Part shown: positions 2,327 to 61,280 of the stretch, piece after piece | Numbering within the stretch: the first letter of the stretch is position 1 | Layout: each line of letters starts with the position of its first letter | DNA from: a virus | Taxonomy: Duplodnaviria > Heunggongvirae > Uroviricota > Caudoviricetes | Strand: one strand, 5' to 3' | IMG/VR virus record: IMGVR_UViG_3300037313_001331 | DNA length: 64,000 bases | Made by a program: the position numbers and the translations under genes | Notes under the pieces: model-generated | Told to the model about the DNA's origin: nothing | The model's input: only the letters and a program-made list of their open reading frames with translations | The model's database searches: none

Positions 2327-2551
2327 TCAGAAGAAGGTGGGTTTGGCCACGGCGCGGGTCAGCGCCATCAGACCGGTCTGGAAGTCGGTGGCGCCGATGG
2401 ACACCCAGCGCTGATCGAGGTTCGGCGTGGCACGCAGCCGCTCGATGAGCGCGCCCAGCTCGGCTCCCTTGGCCTTGATCTCGTTCATCAGGTCGATCTC
2501 GACCTGGTCCAGCTCGCGGTAGCCCGCGATCTTTCGGTGTTGGTTGTCCAT
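2327..2551 (-). CDS. hypothetical protein (74 aa)
   Basis: start MDNQHRK overlaps stop of upstream gene (TGATG). Confidence 0.5.
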   Translation of the reverse strand: MDNQHRKIAGYRELDQVEIDLMNEIKAKGAELGALIERLRATPNLDQRWVSIGATDFQTGLMALTRAVAKPTFF

Positions 2552-5738: not shown

Positions 5739-6032
5739 ATGTCCGAACTGCACCGATCAAGCTATGCGATTCGCAAGGACCTACAGCCAGGCCTGGACAA
5801 GGCCATCACGACCATGGGGCTGCAGTCCATCGGCGAGCTGCTCAGCATGATCGCTCGCGACCCAGCGCGTGCCGCCATTGCGCTCAAGCCCTTGGCTGAC
5901 GCGCTGCAGGCCGACAAGGACGAGGCCAAGCGCTTGAAGCAGGCCCAGGCCGACGTGAAGAAGCTCGCACGCACCGCGGACCCGGAGGCCGTCGCGAAGG
6001 CACTGGCCATCTTGAACAAGGCGCAGAAGTGA
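5739..6032 (+). CDS. hypothetical protein
   Basis: ATG after GGAGA; CCTATAATG box and degenerate class A boxes upstream. Confidence 0.5.
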   Translation: MSELHRSSYAIRKDLQPGLDKAITTMGLQSIGELLSMIARDPARAAIALKPLADALQADKDEAKRLKQAQADVKKLARTADPEAVAKALAILNKAQK

Positions 6033-6706
6033 CCGACAAGGTGCTCACCGGCGGGGTGAAGTCGACGAGTTTCAAGAAGCTGCGTGATTCGGAGCTGTTG
6101 GTTCCTGAGCACGTGGCGAAGGACCTGGAGCGCCGGGTGATGAAGAGCCTTGTCGCAAGTCGTGACGCCTTCAGTCGTGAGTACCTGGCGACTTGGGAGC
6201 CCGAAGAGAAGAAGGAAGAAATGACAGGGATCTCGGCAGCGCCCTCGTGGGCCATCACCTCGTTGAAGTGGCTCAAAGAAAACGGCTACGGCAGCTACGT
6301 CAGCTCGGGCATCACGCCGGACGTGCGCCTGCTGGGCGCGTTGCGCCGGATGTGCTGGATGAAGCTCGACCGCGTCAGCGGCGAGGATCGAGACCCCGAG
6401 GAATACAGCGCCCTGCTGACCGAGTACGTGAGTCGGTGGGATGCGGCACGGCACAAGGAAATGCGTGCATTCTTGGAGAGCGGAGGCTACTCGACCGAGA
6501 AGCGTCTTCATGGGGTCTCTCCGGCGGAGCCCGGCAAGATCACACTGGACGGCGCCGAAGGCCATGTTTGGGTGGTCGAAAACGGCCCAGACGGAAAGAT
6601 CCCCGCGCGTCCAGAGCCGGCAGCGCCTGCGTCGGAGATCGATGACCTGGCCGCCGCGGTGTTGGCTGAAGCAAAGGCGCGTGATTCGCGTCACGGGAGC
6701 TGGTGA
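6029..6706 (+). CDS. hypothetical protein
   Basis: GTG start overlapping upstream stop (GTGA). Confidence 0.55.
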   Translation: MTDKVLTGGVKSTSFKKLRDSELLVPEHVAKDLERRVMKSLVASRDAFSREYLATWEPEEKKEEMTGISAAPSWAITSLKWLKENGYGSYVSSGITPDVRLLGALRRMCWMKLDRVSGEDRDPEEYSALLTEYVSRWDAARHKEMRAFLESGGYSTEKRLHGVSPAEPGKITLDGAEGHVWVVENGPDGKIPARPEPAAPASEIDDLAAAVLAEAKARDSRHGSW

Positions 6707-11504: not shown

Positions 11505-11738
11505 CTACAACTCCACCGAGGCGTCGGTGACGCGCTCTGCCTTCAGGAGCTTCATCCCCATCGCCGGGAACGTGTGAGCCGCGCTGGCCCTCACTCCCTT
11601 GTCCAGCACGTCGGAATCGACCGTGGCGGTGCTGATGATGGTCCAGAGATGCCTGCTGCCGTTGTTGTCTTCGATCAGCGCTCTCAGGATGACTCGTTCG
11701 TTCGGGTACTGCGGATTCTCTTGCTTCGGACTACGCAT
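11505..11738 (-). CDS. hypothetical small protein (77 aa)
   Basis: C-terminal part of a longer Arg-rich ORF; manually chosen ATG. Confidence 0.3.
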   Translation of the reverse strand: MRSPKQENPQYPNERVILRALIEDNNGSRHLWTIISTATVDSDVLDKGVRASAAHTFPAMGMKLLKAERVTDASVEL

Positions 11739-13056
11739 GGGGACTTCAACTGCCTGGTGTACTGCTCGGAGGTGCCTCGGGCCAGGGAGCGCTGAGCCTA
11801 GGACGGGTGGATTCTCGGTCAGCCTCTGGTGGGCGGGTGGACATGAAACGGTAAGGATTGCCGATTGTGTGCGCGTCGTCACAGTCGGACGCACCTTTTC
11901 AGGACGTTTAAGGTAGGAGCCAGAACCCCTGGCGCCTGGAAGGTCGTTTCGATTGATCTCACGATTGGCGCCACCCCTATAAGCCAACTTACAGGTAGAC
12001 CCACACCTGGCCCCACAGCCAGACCCCTGCCTGTCCCTCTCTGCGGCATGTGATCCACCAGCCTGAGCCTCCCTATGGGTGAGCCTGTGCGTGTTGCCTA
12101 CCCTCCCCTTGGAGCATCTGCGAGCCTGGGTGTCTCTGTTCGTTGCCCGGCTCGTCCTGCCCCTCTTCCGTTCGGTGGTGCTACTGCCGGTGATCGCTCC
12201 GGGTGCTCTTCTGCTCACGACGCTTGCCCCTTTCCTCATAGGTGTTTCCTGCTGTATCTGCAGTCTCGGCGCTCGCTAGCTCACTGGCTGAGCCTGGGCT
12301 GTTCGGGGCCTGGTTCGGGTGTGGCGTTTCACCGGTTTGCGGGATGGGCTGCTCGCGCCATTCCCTTCTGGGAATCGGTGCAGCTCATTCCCTTTCGGGC
12401 ATTGCCGTGCGGTGCGCCTGGTGGTCGGCGGGCTTCTTGGGGCGCTCCAGCTTGTTGGGTTGGGGCTCGGGTGCTCGTTGCGTTGCGAATCGTCTGCCTT
12501 GCGCTCGGCGTGCGCTGCCTTCCCGTGCTTTATGCGGCGCTTTCTGTCTTCCCTGGTGATTTCTTCGGGGCGAAGCCGACATCTTCGACAGGTCCTGCAT
12601 ATAAGATGAATTGAGCGGACAAAAAGCCTTATAAATCAACAACTTACGAGCCTAGGCAGGAGTTGCACAAAATGAAGCCGCCCAACCGTGAAGTTGAGCG
12701 GCCCGAAGACTCGTTGGCATCACTCTCGGAGTCGGTTCACACACACGTGGTCGCAACACCGCAGTGTGGGCAGAGCCTGGTGCTTGTCAGGCGCTCTCCA
12801 CACCACCCAGGTCCACCTGCCCCACACTCAAGGGAGCTTCGGACCTGGCCTATGGGCGGGCCGTCGGGGCTCTTCACGTCCCCATGGCTAGCCACCGGGC
12901 AGGCGGCCTTCGTTCAATGACTCAAGGATTGCTGACGGATGTCAGGCGTGCCTGCTGTTCAGCGCCGCAGGCTTGCGGTGCCCCTTCTTGTGCTCTGGGG
13001 CTGGGATTCTCTTCGTCGTGTTCCTCAAGGTGTTGATGGCAAGTCGGATCAGCGCT

Positions 13057-13272
13057 TCATCCGGCACCTCCCTTCGCTTCCAGGGCTTTGTTGATGTTCT
13101 CAATGCGTTGGGTCCAACCGGCGGCTCGCATCGTGATCGTGCGGCGATGGTTCTCACGCACGTCCTCAGGCACTCGGCTTTCCAGCGTGCCGAGAAGTCG
13201 CCCCTCCTGGTCCAGATGGGCCTGGGCAACTCGGCGTTGAGCCAAGAGTTGCTCACGGGTGTAGTCGCTCAT
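13057..13272 (-). CDS. hypothetical protein (71 aa)
   Basis: ATG after GGGAG. Confidence 0.45.
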   Translation of the reverse strand: MSDYTREQLLAQRRVAQAHLDQEGRLLGTLESRVPEDVRENHRRTITMRAAGWTQRIENINKALEAKGGAG

Positions 13273-24390: not shown

Positions 24391-24467
24391 GAGGCTACGT
24401 TCGTGATTCGCGAATCACGAAGTGCGCGTGTGCGTGTGCGCGAGTGACACGCCAGACATGGCAGCGG

Positions 24468-24727
24468 CGTTCCCACCACGAGGCCCCACTGTTCCCACCA
24501 CCCCGGGCCGTTCCCACCATCGTTCCCACCTTTTTGCCCGGATGCAGGCGGACGGCAGCGAATAGGCGCGCAAAGAAAAAAGCCCCGTTTCCAGAGGAGA
24601 ACGGGGCTTTTCAGGATGGTTGCGGATCGTGATGAACGATCTGCTGGCGGAGCCGGAGGCTGTCCAATAGCAAGGATTGGCGCGGGTTCCCGGGGTATCA
24701 TTCCCACTTTCCCACCGCCATTCCCAC
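24468..24727. repeat. eight direct TTCCCAC(C) repeats, candidate integrase arm-type sites (attP)
   Basis: TTCCCACC at 24470, 24492, 24511, 24523 and TTCCCAC(C) at 24690, 24701, 24710, 24720, all upstream of int. Confidence 0.5.
24574..24612. terminator. bidirectional intrinsic terminator
   Basis: A-tract, then AGCCCCGT / ACGGGGCT 8-bp stem, then T-tract. Confidence 0.55.
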
Positions 24728-24737
24728 CGGCCAATTT

Positions 24738-25964
24738 ATGCCCCGTCACACCCTCGTCGCCACCACTTTGAAGGCGAAGATCGAAGCCGCACTGGCGGCT
24801 GCCAAGGACTCCCAGAAGGCCCAGAAGCTGGGCGACGGCGACGGGCTGATGCTGGTGGCCCGCCCCAGCGGCGATGCCTCGTGGGTGCTGCGGTACCGCC
24901 AGGATGGTGCACGAAAGGACCTGACCCTGGGCCGGTGGCCAACGCTGACCCTGAAGATGGCGCGGGACGAAGCGGACAAGGCCCGCAAGTCTGCCGCCAC
25001 CGGCGTCGACCCGGTCGAGGCGAAGAAGGCGGCCCGCAAAGCGCGCCCCGGCGTGGCATCGGGCCCGGACACGGTCAGGCGGCTCTTCGAGGACTGGCGG
25101 GCCAAGGAAGAGGTCAGCGCCGTCTACGCCGGCAACATCGAGGCGGCGTTCCTGAAGGACGTGCTGCCTGTCATCGGCGCCGTGCCACCCGAGGACGTGA
25201 CCCGCGAGCAGATCCTGAAAATCCTGCGGACCATCGAAGGCCGGGGCGCCGTCGACATGGTCCGCCGGGTTCGCATGTGGATGCGGCAGATGTTCGAGTT
25301 CGGCATCGAGGACGAGAGCCGCCCTGCCCTGCGCATGTCGCCGGTGCCGATGGGGACGCTGAAGTCCTTCAAGAAGTCACGCAAGAAGCGGCACTACGCG
25401 GCCATCAAGGACGCCAAGGAGGTGCCGGCGCTGATGAAGGCGATCAAGGGCATCACGGACAACTTTGTCATCCGGAACGCCTTCCTGCTGTCGGCGCACA
25501 CGTTCCAGCGGCCGACCGAGATTCGCGAGGCGACCTGGGACGAGTTCGACCTGGACGCAGGCATCTGGCGCATCCCCGCGGAGCGCATGAAGCTGGCCGG
25601 CGAGCACTGGGTGCCGCTGTCGCGCCAGGTGGTGGAGATCCTGCGCGTGCACAAGGGCGTGGTGGGAGATCAGGGCTGGCTGTTCCCGGGCCGGAAGTAC
25701 GGCCAGTCCATCTCCGAGGGCACGCTCACCGGCCGCCTGAACAACATGGGGTTCGAGGGCCGTCACACGCCTCACGGGTTCCGCGCGATGGCGCGGACCA
25801 TCGGTGAAGAGGTCCTGCACATCGACGCCAAGTACCTGGAGAAGCAGCTTTCACACGAGGTCGATGTGAGCGGGCTGCGGGGCGCCTACAACCGGGCGGA
25901 GTACTGGGACCAGCGGGTCAAGATGATGCAGAAGTGGTCGGACTGGCTGGACGCTCAGACATGA
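24738..25964 (+). CDS. int: tyrosine integrase (P4-like, N-terminal arm-binding domain)
   Basis: N-terminus GDGDGLMLVARPSGDASWVLRYR; C-terminal HGFRAMARTIG...RAEYWDQR catalytic region. Confidence 0.85.
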   Translation: MPRHTLVATTLKAKIEAALAAAKDSQKAQKLGDGDGLMLVARPSGDASWVLRYRQDGARKDLTLGRWPTLTLKMARDEADKARKSAATGVDPVEAKKAARKARPGVASGPDTVRRLFEDWRAKEEVSAVYAGNIEAAFLKDVLPVIGAVPPEDVTREQILKILRTIEGRGAVDMVRRVRMWMRQMFEFGIEDESRPALRMSPVPMGTLKSFKKSRKKRHYAAIKDAKEVPALMKAIKGITDNFVIRNAFLLSAHTFQRPTEIREATWDEFDLDAGIWRIPAERMKLAGEHWVPLSRQVVEILRVHKGVVGDQGWLFPGRKYGQSISEGTLTGRLNNMGFEGRHTPHGFRAMARTIGEEVLHIDAKYLEKQLSHEVDVSGLRGAYNRAEYWDQRVKMMQKWSDWLDAQT

Positions 25965-26121
25965 CCCGCGCCTGGTAGGCGTCGATCTCGATGTCCACCC
26001 ACCGGCTGGACGTGCCCTGCTTCACCGGGCGGGGAAACTTGCCTTCTTGGATCAGCTGGTAGATGGCGGTGCGGCCCAGGCCCACACGCTTCTGGACAGC
26101 CGGTAGTGGAAGGAACTCCAT
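25918..26121 (-). CDS. alpA: AlpA-family excisionase / transcriptional regulator
   Basis: LPLPAVQKRVGLGRTAIYQLIQEGKFPRPVK HTH; overlaps the int 3' end convergently. Confidence 0.75.
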   Translation of the reverse strand: MEFLPLPAVQKRVGLGRTAIYQLIQEGKFPRPVKQGTSSRWVDIEIDAYQARVMSERPASPTTSASS

Positions 26122-37716: not shown

Positions 37717-37930
37717 ACCAGGCTCCAAACCAGCGGCCAACGCCATGAACGATGCCGATGGGGAAGAAGATCGCGCCGGCGACTAGAAAGCCCCACATGC
37801 CCGCCTTGAAGCAGATGACCAGGTGCGTGAGCCAGCCGCCCAGAATCGCGATCAGCAGGCAGACCGGCAGCACGAGGGCACCCACGCCGCCCAGGAGGGC
37901 GCCAATGAAGCGAAGAACGGAGCCGGTCAT
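37715..37930 (-). CDS. small membrane protein
   Basis: internal ATG (MTGSVLRF...); two TM-like segments. Confidence 0.4.
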   Translation of the reverse strand: MTGSVLRFIGALLGGVGALVLPVCLLIAILGGWLTHLVICFKAGMWGFLVAGAIFFPIGIVHGVGRWFGAW

Positions 37931-38415
37931 CGCTGCACCGCCTGACGAGAGACCTTGCTGCTCGGGCCGCCGGTGCGAACCGCGGGCTTGAGGCCGTCCT
38001 GCTCCGCCTCCTTGACCACCTTGAGACGCACGCCATCGACGAACTGCGGGTCGGGGTTGGCGTCGAACATCGCCGTCTTCTTCTTGGGGATCACGTCGTA
38101 GTAGACGCAACCGTTGAGGAACGTGGCGCGGGCGGTGGCAACACCTTCGAGGCCCGTGACGGTATCGCGCACCTTCGAGCCCAGCGGGATGGGGGCGGCT
38201 GTCGCCTTCGTCGCGCGGGCTGACACGCCGGCGTCAACGAAGTTCAGCATGTGGGCGTCGATGTACTGCGCCTCGGGCATCACGTTCTCGCCCTCCTTGT
38301 TGCGGGGCTGCACGGCGTACTGAATGTTGCCGCTGAGCATGTCCCGGCGCTGAATCGCGATGCCGCGAAAGCCGGTGACGGCGTCTTCCACCGTCGATCC
38401 AAGGTCAAAGTTCAT
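37927..38415 (-). CDS. tandem-repeat protein (two ~70-aa repeats)
   Basis: repeat GxxVxDxVTGxxGxAxxR...GxxxY twice; ATG 14 nt after the tRNA 3' end with AAAGGA SD between. Confidence 0.5.
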   Translation of the reverse strand: MNFDLGSTVEDAVTGFRGIAIQRRDMLSGNIQYAVQPRNKEGENVMPEAQYIDAHMLNFVDAGVSARATKATAAPIPLGSKVRDTVTGLEGVATARATFLNGCVYYDVIPKKKTAMFDANPDPQFVDGVRLKVVKEAEQDGLKPAVRTGGPSSKVSRQAVQR

Positions 38416-38429
38416 GGGGTCCTTTCGAT

Positions 38430-38507
38430 TGGGGACGGCGGCAGGACTCGAACCTGCGACCAAGTGCCTGTTCGGCACGATTGCTCTACCGCTGAGCTAC
38501 GCCGTCC
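38430..38507 (-). tRNA. tRNA-like gene, His-type acceptor (G-1:C73, encoded CCA) but non-canonical anticodon arm
   Basis: canonical D arm and T arm, 7-bp acceptor plus extra 5' G; anticodon region GTGCC-GAACA-GGCAC has a 5-nt loop or G33. Confidence 0.55.
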
Positions 38508-38689
38508 GTTGAAGGGAGCACCAGGCGGATTCGACCCCGCGGCGTCAGAACCGTGAGAGCGGAGGAACTGAATCTCCGGGTGCATGGTTCCGCTTGACTA
38601 GCCTCGACGCGCTACTTGGTTCACTCAGCCGCCGTCTGTCAACCGACGGCGTCACTACTGCTTTCGCGCTCGACTGGCACCTTGATCTG

Positions 38690-39157
38690 TCAGTTGAGTT
38701 CGGGGTCGTCGTCCTCGTCCGTGTCGAGGAAGGACACGCCCTCGATCACGACCGGCTTGTCCTTCTGCGGCAGCGCCGATTGCAGGATCACAGCTGCAGC
38801 GCTGGGGGCCGTTGCCGGGGCCACCTTCTTCGTGCCCTTGTCGGACCGGGGCTTGCGCGTCGCCGGCTGGCTACGGATGCGCACTTCCTGCTTGTAGCAG
38901 GCCATGATCGCGGCGCGGTTGACGAACAGGAATTCGCCCAGCGTGGCCTCGGTGACGACGGGATTGCCACGGTCGTCCAGCGTCACGCCCGGCAGGTCTT
39001 CGTCGATGAGTGCAAGGGCATTCAGCGCCTCGCGGACCTTCACGTTCTGCATGTGCTCGGTCGCGGCCTTCAGCGTCGCGTGCGTGGTGCCGTCCTTCGC
39101 GCGGAACCCGCTGAACTTCTCGATGTCGGCGGTGATCGCCTTCTTGGTCTCTGCCAT
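38690..39157 (-). CDS. hypothetical protein
   Basis: 155-aa ORF, acidic C-terminus. Confidence 0.5.
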   Translation of the reverse strand: MAETKKAITADIEKFSGFRAKDGTTHATLKAATEHMQNVKVREALNALALIDEDLPGVTLDDRGNPVVTEATLGEFLFVNRAAIMACYKQEVRIRSQPATRKPRSDKGTKKVAPATAPSAAAVILQSALPQKDKPVVIEGVSFLDTDEDDDPELN

Positions 39158-39372
39158 GTGTTCTCCTGTTGCAAAGGGAAGCGGGCGTCCGGATGGCTCT
39201 GTGCTTTCCCGGTCCTCATCGGTCGCCTCGCCCGCTTTCGTTTGCAGGGGCCGGAGCCCCTGGGATCAGGCCTTGCGCTTGCGCCACCAGACCTTCACGG
39301 TGGCCACTCCCACCACACCCACGATGACGCCGAAGACGAAGGTCTCGGCGATGTTCGAGAACGTGCAAGCGA

Positions 39373-57142: not shown

Positions 57143-57652
57143 CTATTCGGACGACTTCGCAGCGCCGCCAGACATCGCGTCCAGCATCCGCTCGCGATTG
57201 GCCTGGTTGACAGCGACCCGCAGGCCACCCTCCTTCTCCTTCGCTGCGTCCCGGGCGATCTGCAGGAGCATGTCCTTGCGGTGCTCGAAGGATCGCTCAG
57301 CGACTTCGGCCAGGCGGTATTCCTGCTGAGCGTCGATCAGCTGCGCGTAGGCGCGACGGTACCGGGCGTCCAGCACCAGCGCGGCACGAATCTGCCCCTC
57401 GGTGGTCTTGGGGTTTTCTTCCTTCAGCTTCAGACGGTATTCGCCATCCAGCTTGCCTTCGAGGATCTCGACCGCCACCTTGTACCGCTCGTACTGGCGC
57501 TTCGCCCGCACGGTCCGCGTGGCGTAGAACACGTACAGCGCGGAGTGCTGCGCCATGTTCCCGCTCAGGTCGGTCAGGTCGATGGAAATGTCCTTCTTCA
57601 GCTGCTCCGGGTCGACGTATGCCGTCATCGCGGTTTCTGCGGCTTCGCTCAT
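57143..57652 (-). CDS. hypothetical protein
   Basis: AGGAGAG SD; ATGA overlap with the dnaE stop. Confidence 0.5.
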   Translation of the reverse strand: MSEAAETAMTAYVDPEQLKKDISIDLTDLSGNMAQHSALYVFYATRTVRAKRQYERYKVAVEILEGKLDGEYRLKLKEENPKTTEGQIRAALVLDARYRRAYAQLIDAQQEYRLAEVAERSFEHRKDMLLQIARDAAKEKEGGLRVAVNQANRERMLDAMSGGAAKSSE

Positions 57653-60600
57653 GTCAGTAGCTCTCCTAGTTTCTCGAACGTGTTCTCGATCAGCCGGACC
57701 TTCGAGGGGTCATGGAAGACTGATCCGGGGTGAATGCCGAAGATGACGGTTGCATCCAGGTCGGCGCGATAGATGACCTTGCCGGCCAGGTCCGCCGGCG
57801 TGCCCTTGATGCCCGGCGCGAACCAGCGCACCGCGTTGCTGCCCATCGCGATGATGATGGGCGGCTTCAGAATCTCGATCTCCTGCTCCAGGTACTTGGA
57901 GCATCCGATGATCTGCTCGTTGGTCAGGGCCTTCTGCTCTTTCGGCTTCGACACCTTCACCAGCGACGTGTAGTAGCCGTCGGAGGCCCGGAGGCCCACG
58001 TCCTTCAGAGCCGCCTTCACCGCTTCGGAGGCCTTGCCTTCCAGCATCTTGCCGGCGCGCTCCTCTTCCCAGCTGGGTGTGTCGAACACCATCATGAACC
58101 GCGGCTTGTCGCCCATGCGCGGCAGCGGGTGCGGCTTGCCCTTGAGCGAGCACCCCTCACATGCGCGGGCCTCCTCGACCAGGCGGGTGATCTTGATCTT
58201 GGCCAAGTGCTCCGCATTCAGCTCGCGGTCGGGGCGCACCATTTCGACGGTGAAGCCCGGCACCAGTGCAATGCGGTCTTTCAACCGGTCGGGGTGCGTC
58301 GCGGGCTTGCCCTCACCGGTGATCGAGTGGAGTGCCCCGACCTTCTCCAGGTTCTCCAGGTGCTTGCTGTTGACGGCGGTCCGCCCCAGCACCTCCTTCT
58401 GGGTCTCCTGGTCCAGCCCGCGGATGTGCGCCGGCACCTCCACGATCTTCACCTTGGTCTTGAGCGGCACTTCCTTCGTGCTCACCGGCACCCAGGTGAA
58501 TCTGCCGCCCACGTGGGCGCGCAGCTTCTCGATGGCAGCGGCCACGCCCGAGCTGATGCCCTTGATGGCCTGCAGGGGCGCGTACAGCTTGTCCTCGCCC
58601 TCGATCTCAACCCGGGCGCTCGAACGGTTCAGGTCAGGCGGCAGGACCTGCAGCTTCTTCCCCTGGGCATCAAGCACCAGGCCCGCCAGCTTCTCGTCCT
58701 TGTCGACCACCGTCATCGCCGCGGCGAAGAATTCGGCGGGGTAGTACACCTTCAGCCACATCGTCACCCAGCTGATGAGCGAGTACTCGTAGGAGTGCGA
58801 CTTGTTGAAGGAGTATGCCGCGTAGCCCTCGATGGAGGTCCACAGCGACTCGGCCTTGTGCTCTTCCCATTCGGAGTGGTCGACGCAGCCCTTGATGAAC
58901 TTGTCCTTGAACTCGGCCATCTTCTCGGCGTCCTTCTTGCCGATGGCCTTTCGCACACCGTCTGCTTCGCCCGGCGTGAAGCCCGCGAGCACCCGGCAGA
59001 CCTGCATCACCTGCTCCTGGTACGCCATCACCCCGTAGGTTTCAGACAGCACCGGCTCCAGCTTCGGGTGGTCGTAGTACGGCCGCGTGGCTCCCTGCTT
59101 CACCTGGACGTAGCGGTCACAGAGGCCGGCGTCCAGCGGGCCCGGCCGGAAGAGCGCGGTTGCGGCGCAGATGTCGTCGAACGTGAGCGGCCCGCCCAGT
59201 GCCAGCTGCTTCAGCAGGTTCTTCATGCCGCCGCCCTCGAACTGGAACACGCCGGTGGTGTCGCCCTTCGCGAATGCCTCCAGCACCCGCTTGTCGTCAA
59301 GCGGCAGGGAAAGCATGTCGATGGTCTTGTGGTGACGCTCGCGGATGTACTCCAGCGCCGTCTCGACCATGTCCAGAGTGCTGAGGCCCAGAATGTCGAT
59401 CTTGATCAGGCCAAAGTCCTCGACCTTGGTCTTGTCCCACTGCACGATCGGCAGGGTGCTGCCATCCTTGTCACCGCGGGTGGACACCACGGCCCGGTTC
59501 ACCACCGGCTCGCCGGCGACGACCACGCCCGCGGCGTGTTGCGACAGCGAGCGGTTGGCGCCCTCCAGGCGCAGCGCATAGTCCCACAGGATCGGCCGCT
59601 CGTTCTTGAACTTCTCGATGTCGGGCACGCGTTCGGCGGACTCGGTCAGGCTCAGCGAGACACCGTGCTCCTTTTCCATCTGCTTCGAGCAGGCGTACTC
59701 CCATGGATCCAGGTCATGCAGGCGCGCGGTGTCGCGCAGCGCCGACGCCGGGCCCAGAGTGGAGAAGTTGACGATGCCGGCAACGCGGTCGTGCCCCCAC
59801 TTGTTGCGGATGTAGTCGATGACCATGTGGCGCTTGCCGGACATGAAGTCGAGGTCGGCGTCGGGAAGGTCCACGCGGTCGGGGTTGATGAAGCGCTCGA
59901 ACAGCAGGCCGAAACGGATGGGGTCGATGTCAGTGATGCCCATCAGGTAGGCGACCAGAGACCCGCCCACGGAGCCGCGCCCGGGGCCGACGCGCACGCC
60001 GTTTTCCTTGCTCCAGTTGACGATGTCCTGCACCAGCAGGAAGTAGCCGCTGAAGCCCATCTTCTTCAGGACGCCCAGCTCGAATGCCAGGCGCTCCCGG
60101 TACGGTCCGTCCAGGTCCTCGCGGCTCGGGGCGTGGCCCCAGACCTCGCGACCGAAGCGTTTGCCCCAGCCGGCCTTCACTGCGGCCAGCAGCGCGGTGA
60201 ACTCGTCGTCAGCCATCTTGGGCATGGTCGGCTGCAGCTTCTTGAAGACGAAGCTGCAGCCGGCCGGGATCAGCTTGGCGTTCTCGACCAGCGAGAGCAC
60301 CCGACCGCTGCCAACCTGGTCGCGCAGCTTCTTGCACTCCTCCACCATGTCCTTCGCTGACAGCAGGCACATGTTGCGCACGTAGGGGCGCGGCAGAAAG
60401 ATCGAATGGGCGGACGTGTTGCTGCTGATGGCGCGCAGCACGTCGGTGGCATTCGCGTCCTCGGGCGTGGCGTAGAACGCCGGCCGAGTGACGATCATGG
60501 TCTGCAGGTAGGCGTCGCCCACCTCGAACGCCTTGCGGTTCAGACGGTTGAACAGCGGCGTGTCCAGCGCCACCAGCTCGATGATGTAGTCGCGGCCGAA

Positions 60601-61074
60601 CCGGGCGGACAGCTGCGCGCTGATCGAGGTGGCGTCCTCGCGGTGCCACAGGTTGTAGATGTCGCCGGTCGTGACGATCACGTCCTCCAGCGCCAGCACG
60701 TCGGCCAGACCCAGGCGGGCGTGGTAGTAGTAGTGCTCGGGCGTGAGCGACTTCGTGAGGGCCGCGAACAGACTCTGCATGCCCTTGTCGGACTTCACGT
60801 AGACCTTCAGGCGGTAGCCGCCGTTCTCGCGGTCCTTGAGCTTCGCCGTCGGATCGTCCACCACCTGGATGGTGCACCCGACAATGGGCGTGATGCCGGC
60901 CTTCTTGCATTTCTCGGCGAAGAACGGCATCGACGCGACGCTCATGTAGTCCGCGAGCGCGATGTGCGTGTAGCCCAGCTCCTTCGCGCGGTCGACGATC
61001 TTGCCGACCTGGAAGCTGGACTCGCCCAGCGAGAAGTCGGAGCGAACCGACAGTGCGATCTGCAGCGGATTCAA
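57649..61074 (-). CDS. dnaE: DNA polymerase III alpha (DnaE) fused to a C-terminal family-4 UDG-like domain
   Basis: PHP domain and palm GPGRGSVGGSLVAYLMGITDIDP; C-terminal ~190 aa with GIHPGSV (HPS-like) motif; TTG start after GGAGAAG, overlapping upstream TGA (TTGA). Confidence 0.85.
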   Translation of the reverse strand: MNPLQIALSVRSDFSLGESSFQVGKIVDRAKELGYTHIALADYMSVASMPFFAEKCKKAGITPIVGCTIQVVDDPTAKLKDRENGGYRLKVYVKSDKGMQSLFAALTKSLTPEHYYYHARLGLADVLALEDVIVTTGDIYNLWHREDATSISAQLSARFGRDYIIELVALDTPLFNRLNRKAFEVGDAYLQTMIVTRPAFYATPEDANATDVLRAISSNTSAHSIFLPRPYVRNMCLLSAKDMVEECKKLRDQVGSGRVLSLVENAKLIPAGCSFVFKKLQPTMPKMADDEFTALLAAVKAGWGKRFGREVWGHAPSREDLDGPYRERLAFELGVLKKMGFSGYFLLVQDIVNWSKENGVRVGPGRGSVGGSLVAYLMGITDIDPIRFGLLFERFINPDRVDLPDADLDFMSGKRHMVIDYIRNKWGHDRVAGIVNFSTLGPASALRDTARLHDLDPWEYACSKQMEKEHGVSLSLTESAERVPDIEKFKNERPILWDYALRLEGANRSLSQHAAGVVVAGEPVVNRAVVSTRGDKDGSTLPIVQWDKTKVEDFGLIKIDILGLSTLDMVETALEYIRERHHKTIDMLSLPLDDKRVLEAFAKGDTTGVFQFEGGGMKNLLKQLALGGPLTFDDICAATALFRPGPLDAGLCDRYVQVKQGATRPYYDHPKLEPVLSETYGVMAYQEQVMQVCRVLAGFTPGEADGVRKAIGKKDAEKMAEFKDKFIKGCVDHSEWEEHKAESLWTSIEGYAAYSFNKSHSYEYSLISWVTMWLKVYYPAEFFAAAMTVVDKDEKLAGLVLDAQGKKLQVLPPDLNRSSARVEIEGEDKLYAPLQAIKGISSGVAAAIEKLRAHVGGRFTWVPVSTKEVPLKTKVKIVEVPAHIRGLDQETQKEVLGRTAVNSKHLENLEKVGALHSITGEGKPATHPDRLKDRIALVPGFTVEMVRPDRELNAEHLAKIKITRLVEEARACEGCSLKGKPHPLPRMGDKPRFMMVFDTPSWEEERAGKMLEGKASEAVKAALKDVGLRASDGYYTSLVKVSKPKEQKALTNEQIIGCSKYLEQEIEILKPPIIIAMGSNAVRWFAPGIKGTPADLAGKVIYRADLDATVIFGIHPGSVFHDPSKVRLIENTFEKLGELLT

Positions 61075-61280
61075 GGCGTCTTCTCCAGCGGCACGACGAC
61101 ACCCTTGAAGATGTCCGCGTACTTCACCGCGCTGCCGATTGACATCGGCACACTGAACCGAGGTGGAATGCAGTCGTCGTAGCGAACGCGTGCTTTTGGC
61201 CACCAGTGAGGCTCGTGCCCGCGGAGACCGTTGTGACAAAAGAAACCCATTCGCCCGAGAAGAAGCCAGATCTTGAACAT
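61071..61280 (-). CDS. small ORF translationally coupled to dnaE
   Basis: ATG 5 nt after class A box plus ACACA; no SD. Confidence 0.35.
   Translation of the reverse strand: MFKIWLLLGRMGFFCHNGLRGHEPHWWPKARVRYDDCIPPRFSVPMSIGSAVKYADIFKGVVVPLEKTP

Follow-up and report, generated by a model that had tools for sequence, protein, structure and literature searches.

The 64,000 nt stretch of DNA analyzed here (the window), from the IMG/VR record IMGVR_UViG_3300037313_001331 of a phage of the Caudoviricetes, encodes on its minus strand, at 38430-38507, a tRNA-like gene of histidine type that is unable to present an anticodon in a canonical loop. The features of the top half of a tRNA are kept (an acceptor with a G-1:C73 pair, a D/T elbow with its tertiary-contact nucleotides, and CCA), and a closed hairpin fills the slot of the anticodon arm. 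From the sequence evidence given below, the reading that we favor, with about even confidence, is that of a selected gene, derived from tRNA-His, for a non-decoding tRNA-like RNA.

A histidine-type body with a closed hairpin

As RNA and from 5' to 3', the element reads GGACGGCG UA GCUC AGCGGUA GAGC AAUC GUGCC GAACA GGCAC UUGGUC GCAGG UUCGAGU CCUGC CGCCGUC C CCA, and its parts, with the spacer that follows it, are these:

38430-38507, minus strand: tRNA-like gene of histidine type, 78 nt (ARAGORN; Rfam tRNA model; cloverleaf as minimum free energy fold; five assemblies)
38507, minus strand: G-1
38506-38500, minus strand: 5' strand of the acceptor stem, GACGGCG
38497-38483, minus strand: D arm, GCUC/AGCGGUA/GAGC
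38464-38482, minus strand: aberrant anticodon-arm segment, AAUC plus GUGCC-GAACA-GGCAC, 19 nt against 17 in a tRNA (fold; skipped by Rfam)
38482-38479, minus strand: linker AAUC
38478-38464, minus strand: hairpin GUGCC-GAACA-GGCAC, in the place of the anticodon arm
38463-38458, minus strand: variable loop, UUGGUC
38457-38441, minus strand: T arm, GCAGG-UUCGAGU-CCUGC
38440-38434, minus strand: 3' strand of the acceptor stem, CGCCGUC
38433, minus strand: discriminator C73, which pairs with G-1 (38507)
38432-38430, minus strand: encoded CCA
38416-38429, minus strand: spacer between CCA and ATG, 14 nt, AUCGAAAGGACCCC, with a Shine-Dalgarno sequence GAAAGGA at 38426-38420

The minimum free energy fold of 38430-38507 is exactly this cloverleaf, at -37 kcal/mol, and all of its stems are perfectly paired: an acceptor of 8 bp (7 bp plus G-1:C73), a D stem of 4 bp, a T stem of 5 bp, and a middle hairpin of 5 bp with a 5-nt loop. 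Shuffled versions of the sequence reach -26.6 +/- 3.2 kcal/mol (z = -3.3), and none of 200 folds as well. The features of a canonical tRNA body are present (7-bp acceptor, D arm, and T arm with a GTTCRA loop), and the Rfam tRNA model scores the element at 48.9 bits (E = 2e-7) against a gathering score of 29; the alignment jumps the anticodon arm, where 17 nt stand in for 15 model positions. ARAGORN reports 38430-38506 as the sole tRNA of the window, under the label tRNA-Val(aac). A relaxed Rfam scan found no other tRNA-like sequence in the window, and no other tRNA of the phage was found in the window plus about 10 kb past its ends, about 40 kb of the genome lying outside this search. The element has the same sequence in five independent assemblies, and the 321 nt around it are invariant among the independent assemblies that span them, which come from several samples; over tens of kilobases, every assembly agrees with the window at about 100% identity. 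Because independent assemblies are identical there, the odd arm is not an assembly artefact.

The abnormality is limited to the anticodon arm. This segment lacks U33, which is near-universal in tRNA anticodon loops, and has no GUG in register; the sole GUG triplet (38478-38476) is part of the hairpin stem (5' strand) and not of a loop. A 7-nt loop can be drawn in one way only, as CGAACAG on a 4-bp stem, which entails a C27:U43 mismatch and G33 instead of U33; the minimum free energy fold closes CGAACAG by a C32:G38 pair, leaving the 5-nt loop GAACA. Two surplus nucleotides stand between the D stem and the hairpin. Thus the arm departs from that of a canonical decoding tRNA (5-bp stem, 7-nt loop, U33, and a purine at position 37), from that of tRNA-His in having no GUG at positions 34-36, and from tRNA-Val, for which A73 and a canonical loop carrying A35 and C36 would be expected, in having C73 and a non-canonical loop. 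Exact and covariation-tolerant scans of viral and metagenome contigs, with a pattern checked against the window beforehand, gave no match to this arm elsewhere. A role for the arm hairpin as a repeated protein-binding site was considered and rejected, the hairpin being present as a single copy in the window.

The ancestry of the body was traced by a scan of one genome per species (185,579 species) with a pattern that combined acceptor stem, first part of the D arm, and T loop. Three of the seven matches are real tRNA-His(GTG) genes with G-1 and C73, all of them normal, from three genomes of Solirubrobacteraceae (L023, L024, and L028); the remaining four, genes for tRNA-Met and tRNA-Lys, share the acceptor stem but have A73 and lack G-1. 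With the arm excluded, the window element and the tRNA-His of Solirubrobacteraceae are alike at about 51 of 55 positions (~93%): there is no difference in G-1, acceptor stem, or C73, and very little in the D arm and T loop. The arm itself is unalignable (CCGGG-UUGUGAU-CCCGG in tRNA-His vs. AAUC-GUGCC-GAACA-GGCAC-U in the window). The encoded G-1 pairs with C73 and extends the acceptor helix to 8 bp, and G-1:C73 is the major histidine identity element of bacteria (PMC9976931).

A preliminary description, made from the letters of the sequence, had located the element and drawn its cloverleaf (G-1:C73, D arm, T arm, and CCA), and both are reproduced by our re-reading and by the minimum free energy fold. 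Its designation of the element as His-type is right, because the body outside the arm matches real tRNA-His genes throughout, G-1 and C73 included. It had also held that the element, as read, cannot decode normally: ARAGORN, Rfam, and the fold give neither a 7-nt loop with U33 nor an in-register GUG, the ARAGORN run that it had proposed yields only a forced tRNA-Val(AAC) call, and the re-reading that it had suggested for a canonical 7-nt loop finds a 5-bp stem with a 5-nt loop in its place.

Related elements and genomic surroundings

The same kind of body recurs outside this phage. A length-unbiased pattern scan of 2.9 million viral contigs returned one His-type match, which is itself aberrant (L030, an IMG/VR contig), and a metagenome scan restricted to over-long bodies with G-1 and C73 returned L030 again, along with the metagenome contigs L031/L032. 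L030 has G-1, C73, and the acceptor stem of the window element, and its arm consists of a stem of 9 bp and a loop of 6 nt; the ARAGORN label for this element is 'tRNA-???', with a four-base anticodon. G-1, C73, and the acceptor stem of L031 are likewise as in the window, and in L031/L032 the arm is replaced by a 33-nt insert that holds a CCGC-GCGA-GCGG hairpin (GCGA tetraloop). Rfam aligns the bodies of L030 and L031 and skips both arms, and the hairpins of the window, L030, and L031 are mutually unrelated and unalignable. The window and L031 are identical in their 3' halves (29/29 positions, 11 of which were not fixed by the search pattern) and one indel apart in their 5' halves; the leader before G-1 is TCAC in L030 and L031 and TCAAC in the window. 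The T-stem pair 51:63 is A:U, A:U, and C:G among the three members and G:C in real tRNA-His, compensatory double changes by which the pairing of the T stem is kept.

Apart from the tRNA halves, no homology was found among the window, L030, and L031 contigs, and the 8-9-mers that the window flanks share with those of L030 and L031 (ATCGTGCCG, CCAAGTAG, and TTGACA trailers) are at chance level. The neighbors of the L030 copy are a ParB-like gene, a C5 methylase, and a methyltransferase, and syntenic relatives of this ParB-methylase module contain no tRNA-like sequence. The L031 copy lies near genes for a helix-turn-helix protein and a single-stranded DNA-binding protein, and is the third gene of a three-gene tRNA array. 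The two tRNA genes upstream of it (Ga0138256_10003108, 2482-2649) are a 70-nt 'tRNA-Leu(AAG)' without the long variable arm expected for Leu, and with a weak fold (z = -0.8), and a tRNA-Met; the group may be a small array of irregular tRNAs like those in soil metatranscriptomes. An exact scan of viral contigs for the 3' half gave no matches, a relaxed T-loop scan returned L030 alone again, and no normal-length phage copy was found in IMG/VR. Judged from these sequences, the family is sporadic, with a conserved body and a variable arm. Simple decay becomes less probable in view of two unrelated mobile elements that carry the same body with differing closed hairpins.

In the phage, the surroundings of the element comprise the following features, to which the integrase gene discussed further below is added:

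37927-38415, minus strand: downstream gene, 162 aa, phrog_16275, function unassigned (gene call; identical protein P0001)
38527-38537, minus strand: T-loop-like fragment GGGTCGAATCC (near-match to the T-loop consensus)
38651-38630, minus strand: hairpin CGCCGTC-GGTTGACA-GACGGCG
38690-39157, minus strand: upstream gene, 155 aa, an ORFan seen only in this phage
24738-25964, plus strand: P4-type tyrosine integrase (Arm-DNA-bind_3, Phage_int_M, Phage_integrase)

The start of the downstream gene, ATG 38415, is set by gene callers, by homologues, and by the identical protein P0001. A mechanical list of open reading frames stretches this gene to GTG 38478 (183 aa), through the tRNA-like sequence; ATG 38415 is favored instead. 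Sequence and gene call agree with the preliminary description that the 3' end lies 14 nt before the next ATG with only the Shine-Dalgarno sequence between: from CCA to the ATG there is just AUCGAAAGGACCCC, with its ribosome-binding site. The downstream gene is not functionally tied to the tRNA-like element. No tRNA stands beside its homologues in L007, L008, L010-L012, and the Brevundimonas and Caulobacter phages, and among all of the homologues (eight proteins, many contigs) none has a tRNA at that position except that of the relative L001. The nearest relatives of the window phage have no tRNA-like sequence here: the homologous gene and the gene upstream of it directly adjoin each other. In L001, a cluster of 14 tRNAs is present, one of them about 200 nt upstream of the homologous gene and the other 13 close by. 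This relative (IMGVR_UViG_3300032893_000037) also carries, at 6017-6091, a tRNA-His with A73 and without G-1, of the type of some alphaproteobacteria, which hints at the host range of this phage group. In INPHARED, no close DNA relatives were found, and a distant search gave only generic tRNA similarity.

The 182 nt between the ORFan and the tRNA-like gene are no more structured than shuffled sequences (z = -0.07), and Rfam detects no second tRNA in 38508-38689 (E < 10). The preliminary description had seen here a T-loop fragment and a hairpin built from the acceptor-stem sequences, and had taken both as remnants of duplication. The fragment, which it read as GGTTCGAATCC, is actually GGGTCGAATCC, one base off; this is the only other site in the 64 kb within one mismatch of GGTTCGAATCC, and its alignment to the tRNA-like gene is at chance level (p = 0.53). 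It may, on its sequence, be a relic of another tRNA. The hairpin is real and derives from acceptor and leader, but as an inverted copy: its 5' arm ACGCCGTCGGTTGA (38652-38639) matches the reverse complement of TCAAC (leader), G-1, GACGGCG, and U8 in 13 of its 14 nt (shuffle test, p = 0.006), and its 3' arm plus GC is complementary at 9/9 positions to GCCGCCGUC of the 3' strand of the tRNA-like gene. The 7-mer GACGGCG alone is common (32 copies in the window), and the match of the hairpin reaches well past it. These sequences lend weak support to upstream remnants of tRNA duplication. The 14-nt inverted repeat encloses 126 nt, and the inverted partial copy could be a rearrangement scar or, in RNA, a segment that competes with formation of the acceptor stem. 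A reading of the upstream hairpin as part of a permuted transfer-messenger RNA (tmRNA) was rejected, as it has no T arm, no CCA, and no ARAGORN call; more generally, ARAGORN called no tmRNA, and Rfam gave no tmRNA match, neither in the whole window (E up to 1) nor in 38000-39000 (E up to 10).

The genome assembly of the phage is about 111 kb. It encodes Pol III alpha, a class II ribonucleotide reductase, ThyX, dUTPase, RecA, a pair resembling SbcCD, and a gp32-like protein. The terminases of Pseudomonas phage nickie, Rhizobium phage RHEph10, and Escherichia phage Cyrano share about 60% identity with the terminase of this phage. The Pol III alpha subunit (57649-61077, minus strand) has a match to a UDG-family domain. 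A protein of the Acb2/Tad1-hairpin family (about 2327-2551, minus strand) is likely a sponge for cyclic-nucleotide defense signals. A stretch of about 1.3 kb (about 11738-13057) has no gene called in the annotation of any assembly and no Rfam match; it contains two 17-nt direct repeats CATTCCCTTCTGGGAAT, at 12359 and 12386, is bracketed by a 24-nt imperfect inverted repeat, and could be an origin or regulatory region. An AlpA-like gene lies just downstream of the integrase gene, and about seven arm-type repeats RTTCCCACC stand beside the integrase at 24458-24728, on either side of a candidate attP core of about 165 nt (24533-24696); the flanks of the integrase locus are 24458-24728 and about 25918-26121. 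The integrase and its attP-like block suggest a temperate lifestyle or an integrated mobile element. In isolated phages, all homologues of the downstream gene are from phages of Caulobacterales and Rhodobacterales, and the host may, from these sequences, be an alphaproteobacterium.

Proposed role and competing explanations

Beyond the intact top half, the arm itself speaks for a non-decoding gene, as random decay is not expected to yield a perfect 5-bp helix. The RNA would be made and released as follows. Because no sigma-70 promoter or terminator is predicted on the minus strand in 37800-39300, the element would be co-transcribed with its neighbors among the minus-strand nucleotide-metabolism genes. 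RNase P would then cleave the 5' end and retain G-1 because of the G-1:C73 pair, and 3' trimming would halt at the encoded CCA. Excision would free a stable RNA of about 78 nt and cut the polycistronic mRNA no more than 14 nt before the next ATG, so that formation of the downstream mRNA 5' end by RNase P and 3' processing is plausible from the arrangement of the sequence. In a host with a histidyl-tRNA synthetase (HisRS) of the standard rule, the RNA would be charged with histidine and unusable by the ribosome. These steps of processing, charging, and non-translation are plausible because microhelices with G-1:C73 are HisRS substrates (PMC9976931), because G-1 'irregular tRNAs' are charged by E. 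coli HisRS without insertion of His in translation (Mukai et al., 2017; PMC5389517), and because engineered tRNA scaffolds with an arbitrary hairpin for the anticodon arm are processed and stable in E. coli (PMC3753655). By analogy, the tRNA-like RNA may accept histidine. Once released, it could be a scaffolded hairpin, a decoy, or a mere processing or stability signal.

Several points weigh against a selected non-decoding gene. The family has only three members, all found through patterns in which acceptor stem and T loop were preset, as was the over-long body in the metagenome scan. CCA is encoded in the window copy only, and since the hairpins lack common features, no common ligand or target can be proposed. 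Some alphaproteobacterial HisRS read A73, U72, and the anticodon and ignore G-1:C73 (PMC9976931); with a possible host of this kind, G-1:C73 may not confer charging, and the RNA would be left uncharged by a HisRS blind to that pair. The absence of the element from the nearest relatives fits a dispensable relic too. All phage copies are 100% identical and no relative falls between 58% and 100% identity, so that selection at the locus is unmeasurable.

The strongest rival is a dead gene: a phage tRNA-His, perhaps the last of a decayed array, would have lost its arm by a recent rearrangement and would now be neutral DNA, too young to have decayed further. In favor of decay are the tRNA cluster of L001, with one member upstream of the homologous gene, the lack of other tRNAs in the window and about 10 kb beyond it, the absence of the element from the nearest relatives, the 180 nt of unstructured, non-coding sequence with tRNA-like scraps upstream, and the absence of any sign of selection among identical copies. 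Nevertheless, the new arm, although it exceeds the His arm by 2 nt and differs from it nearly throughout, pairs into a perfect 5-bp helix; the other stems and the tertiary-contact bases are all intact; the same body occurs with other closed hairpins in two unrelated elements; IMG/VR yielded no phage copy of normal length; and the T-stem changes within the family are compensatory. We regard a dead gene as possible but doubtful.

A bolder version of the non-decoding gene is a natural 'tRNA-scaffold' RNA family that would spread horizontally in phages and mobile elements, with a constant His body that ensures processing, stability, and perhaps histidylation, and with differing hairpins; either the hairpin or the charged body would serve as decoy, aptamer, or regulator in the course of infection. 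We advance this only tentatively and think it unlikely. An anti-defense or regulatory decoy, which we consider improbable, is a further reading: the His body would titrate a host factor that reads acceptor, T, and D regions (HisRS, or a toxin or nuclease acting on the acceptor end) and, being unable to decode, would leave translation undisturbed. The constant part of the family is the part that such proteins read, and the decoding part is disabled; the phage has other counter-defense genes, such as that of the Acb2/Tad1-hairpin protein. Phage tRNAs are known to serve in counter-defense, the tRNA-Tyr of the T5 family being reported to act against retrons (bioRxiv 10.1101/2023.03.15.532788), and the G-1 tRNAs that are charged but not translated occurred near toxin-antitoxin genes (PMC5389517). 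Against a decoy, the flanking genes differ in all three contexts and offer no protein partner, and the abundance that it would need is at odds with the lack of a dedicated promoter. No defense system with specificity for the body of tRNA-His is known to us.

A recombination site or scar is very improbable. The element would be a tRNA target of attP/attB type with an arm scrambled by crossover, and the inverted 14-nt copy would be the other end of an inserted element. The phage does encode a P4-like integrase and an AlpA-like protein, tRNA genes are frequent targets of such integrases, in many cases at the anticodon or T loop, the element is sporadic in distribution, and the 14-nt inverted repeat around 126 nt exceeds chance. 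But the attP-like block of seven RTTCCCACC repeats adjoins the integrase 12.5 kb away, and the tRNA-like gene is thus not the attachment site; an attP would hold the 3' part of a tRNA only, next to the integrase and its arm repeats, whereas both halves are present here, at full length and perfectly paired. In the sequence examined there is no integrase beside the L030 or L031 copies, and the 8-9-mers shared by the flanks are at chance level.

A working decoder, either a tRNA-Val(AAC) or a codon reader with an unusual loop, is scarcely credible: ARAGORN's anticodon AAC at position 35 and the drawable 4-bp stem with its 7-nt CGAACAG loop are set against the C27:U43 mismatch, G33, the two surplus bases between D stem and anticodon stem, the C32:G38 pair that closes the loop to 5 nt, an arm that Rfam cannot align, C73 and G-1 in place of the discriminator A73 by which valyl-tRNA synthetase identifies valine tRNAs, the share of GUU among valine codons (only 20 of 290 in twelve genes of this phage), and A34, which bacterial valine tRNAs, to our knowledge, do not use.

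The usual interpretation of phage tRNA genes is codon supply or counter-defense, with irregular ones set aside as pseudogenes. The element described here suggests a third option, a body recognizable as His-tRNA and built so as not to decode. If the non-decoding reading is true, the engineered tRNA scaffold would have an equivalent in nature, tRNAs of histidine identity that are charged without being translated would have been met independently for a second time, and the 78-nt RNA would be a tractable test case for the role of non-decoding aminoacyl-tRNA-like RNAs. If it is a mere relic, annotation pipelines still should not call it tRNA-Val.

Comparison with known systems

Non-decoding tRNA-likes, odd phage tRNAs, and G-1 tRNAs that HisRS charges but that are not translated are already known. 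In the literature on phage His-type tRNA-likes, decoys, and non-decoding tRNAs, we found the irregular tRNAs of Mukai et al. (2017) as the one parallel, and did not find a description of a constant His-type body with interchangeable closed hairpins across unrelated mobile elements. With bacterial tRNA-His, the window element shares G-1:C73 and acceptor, D, and T arms about 93% identical to the genes of Solirubrobacteraceae; it differs in the defining feature, as it has no in-register GUG, no 7-nt loop, and no U33.

Bacillus cereus tRNA-Other and the mammalian mascRNA rely on a tRNA top half to be processed, charged, or given CCA, and do not decode. The 3' tRNA-like structures of plant viruses (accepting His, Val, or Tyr) and the tRNA-like domain of tmRNA have in common with the window element this use of the top half without codon reading. 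These systems differ from it in architecture and context, and no Rfam or ARAGORN match to them was obtained here. In plant viruses, every such tRNA-like structure is able to pair N-1 with N73 and is accepted by HisRS as a substrate (PMC9976931).

The tRNA arrays and pseudo-tRNAs of large phages (T5-like and others) invite comparison through the size of the phage (~111 kb) and the 14-tRNA cluster of its relative L001. They differ in that here there is a single element, its defect is in the arm only, and the same body recurs elsewhere with other arms. The engineered scaffolds of Ponchon and Dardel likewise keep the acceptor, T, and D arms and replace the anticodon stem-loop by a hairpin; those are man-made, and any function of the natural hairpins described here is hypothetical.

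The closest parallel is the tRNA1 group of the irregular tRNAs, from polycistrons in soil metatranscriptomes (Mukai et al., 2017). Those tRNAs have a normal 7-nt loop, an anticodon GGU with GUG at positions 35-37, and in some cases an 8/4 acceptor/T arrangement, in contrast to the closed hairpin with a 5-nt loop and the 7/5 arrangement plus G-1 of the window element. They also lie in irregular-tRNA polycistrons with toxin-antitoxin neighbors, whereas the window element is the lone tRNA-like sequence of its window and no toxin-antitoxin genes are among its annotated neighbors. The likeness, which is one of description, consists in G-1 and a histidine identity of the acceptor on a tRNA without a His anticodon. 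Both groups, moreover, come from environmental contexts resembling mobile elements, and the L031 member of the window family likewise stands in a small tRNA array.

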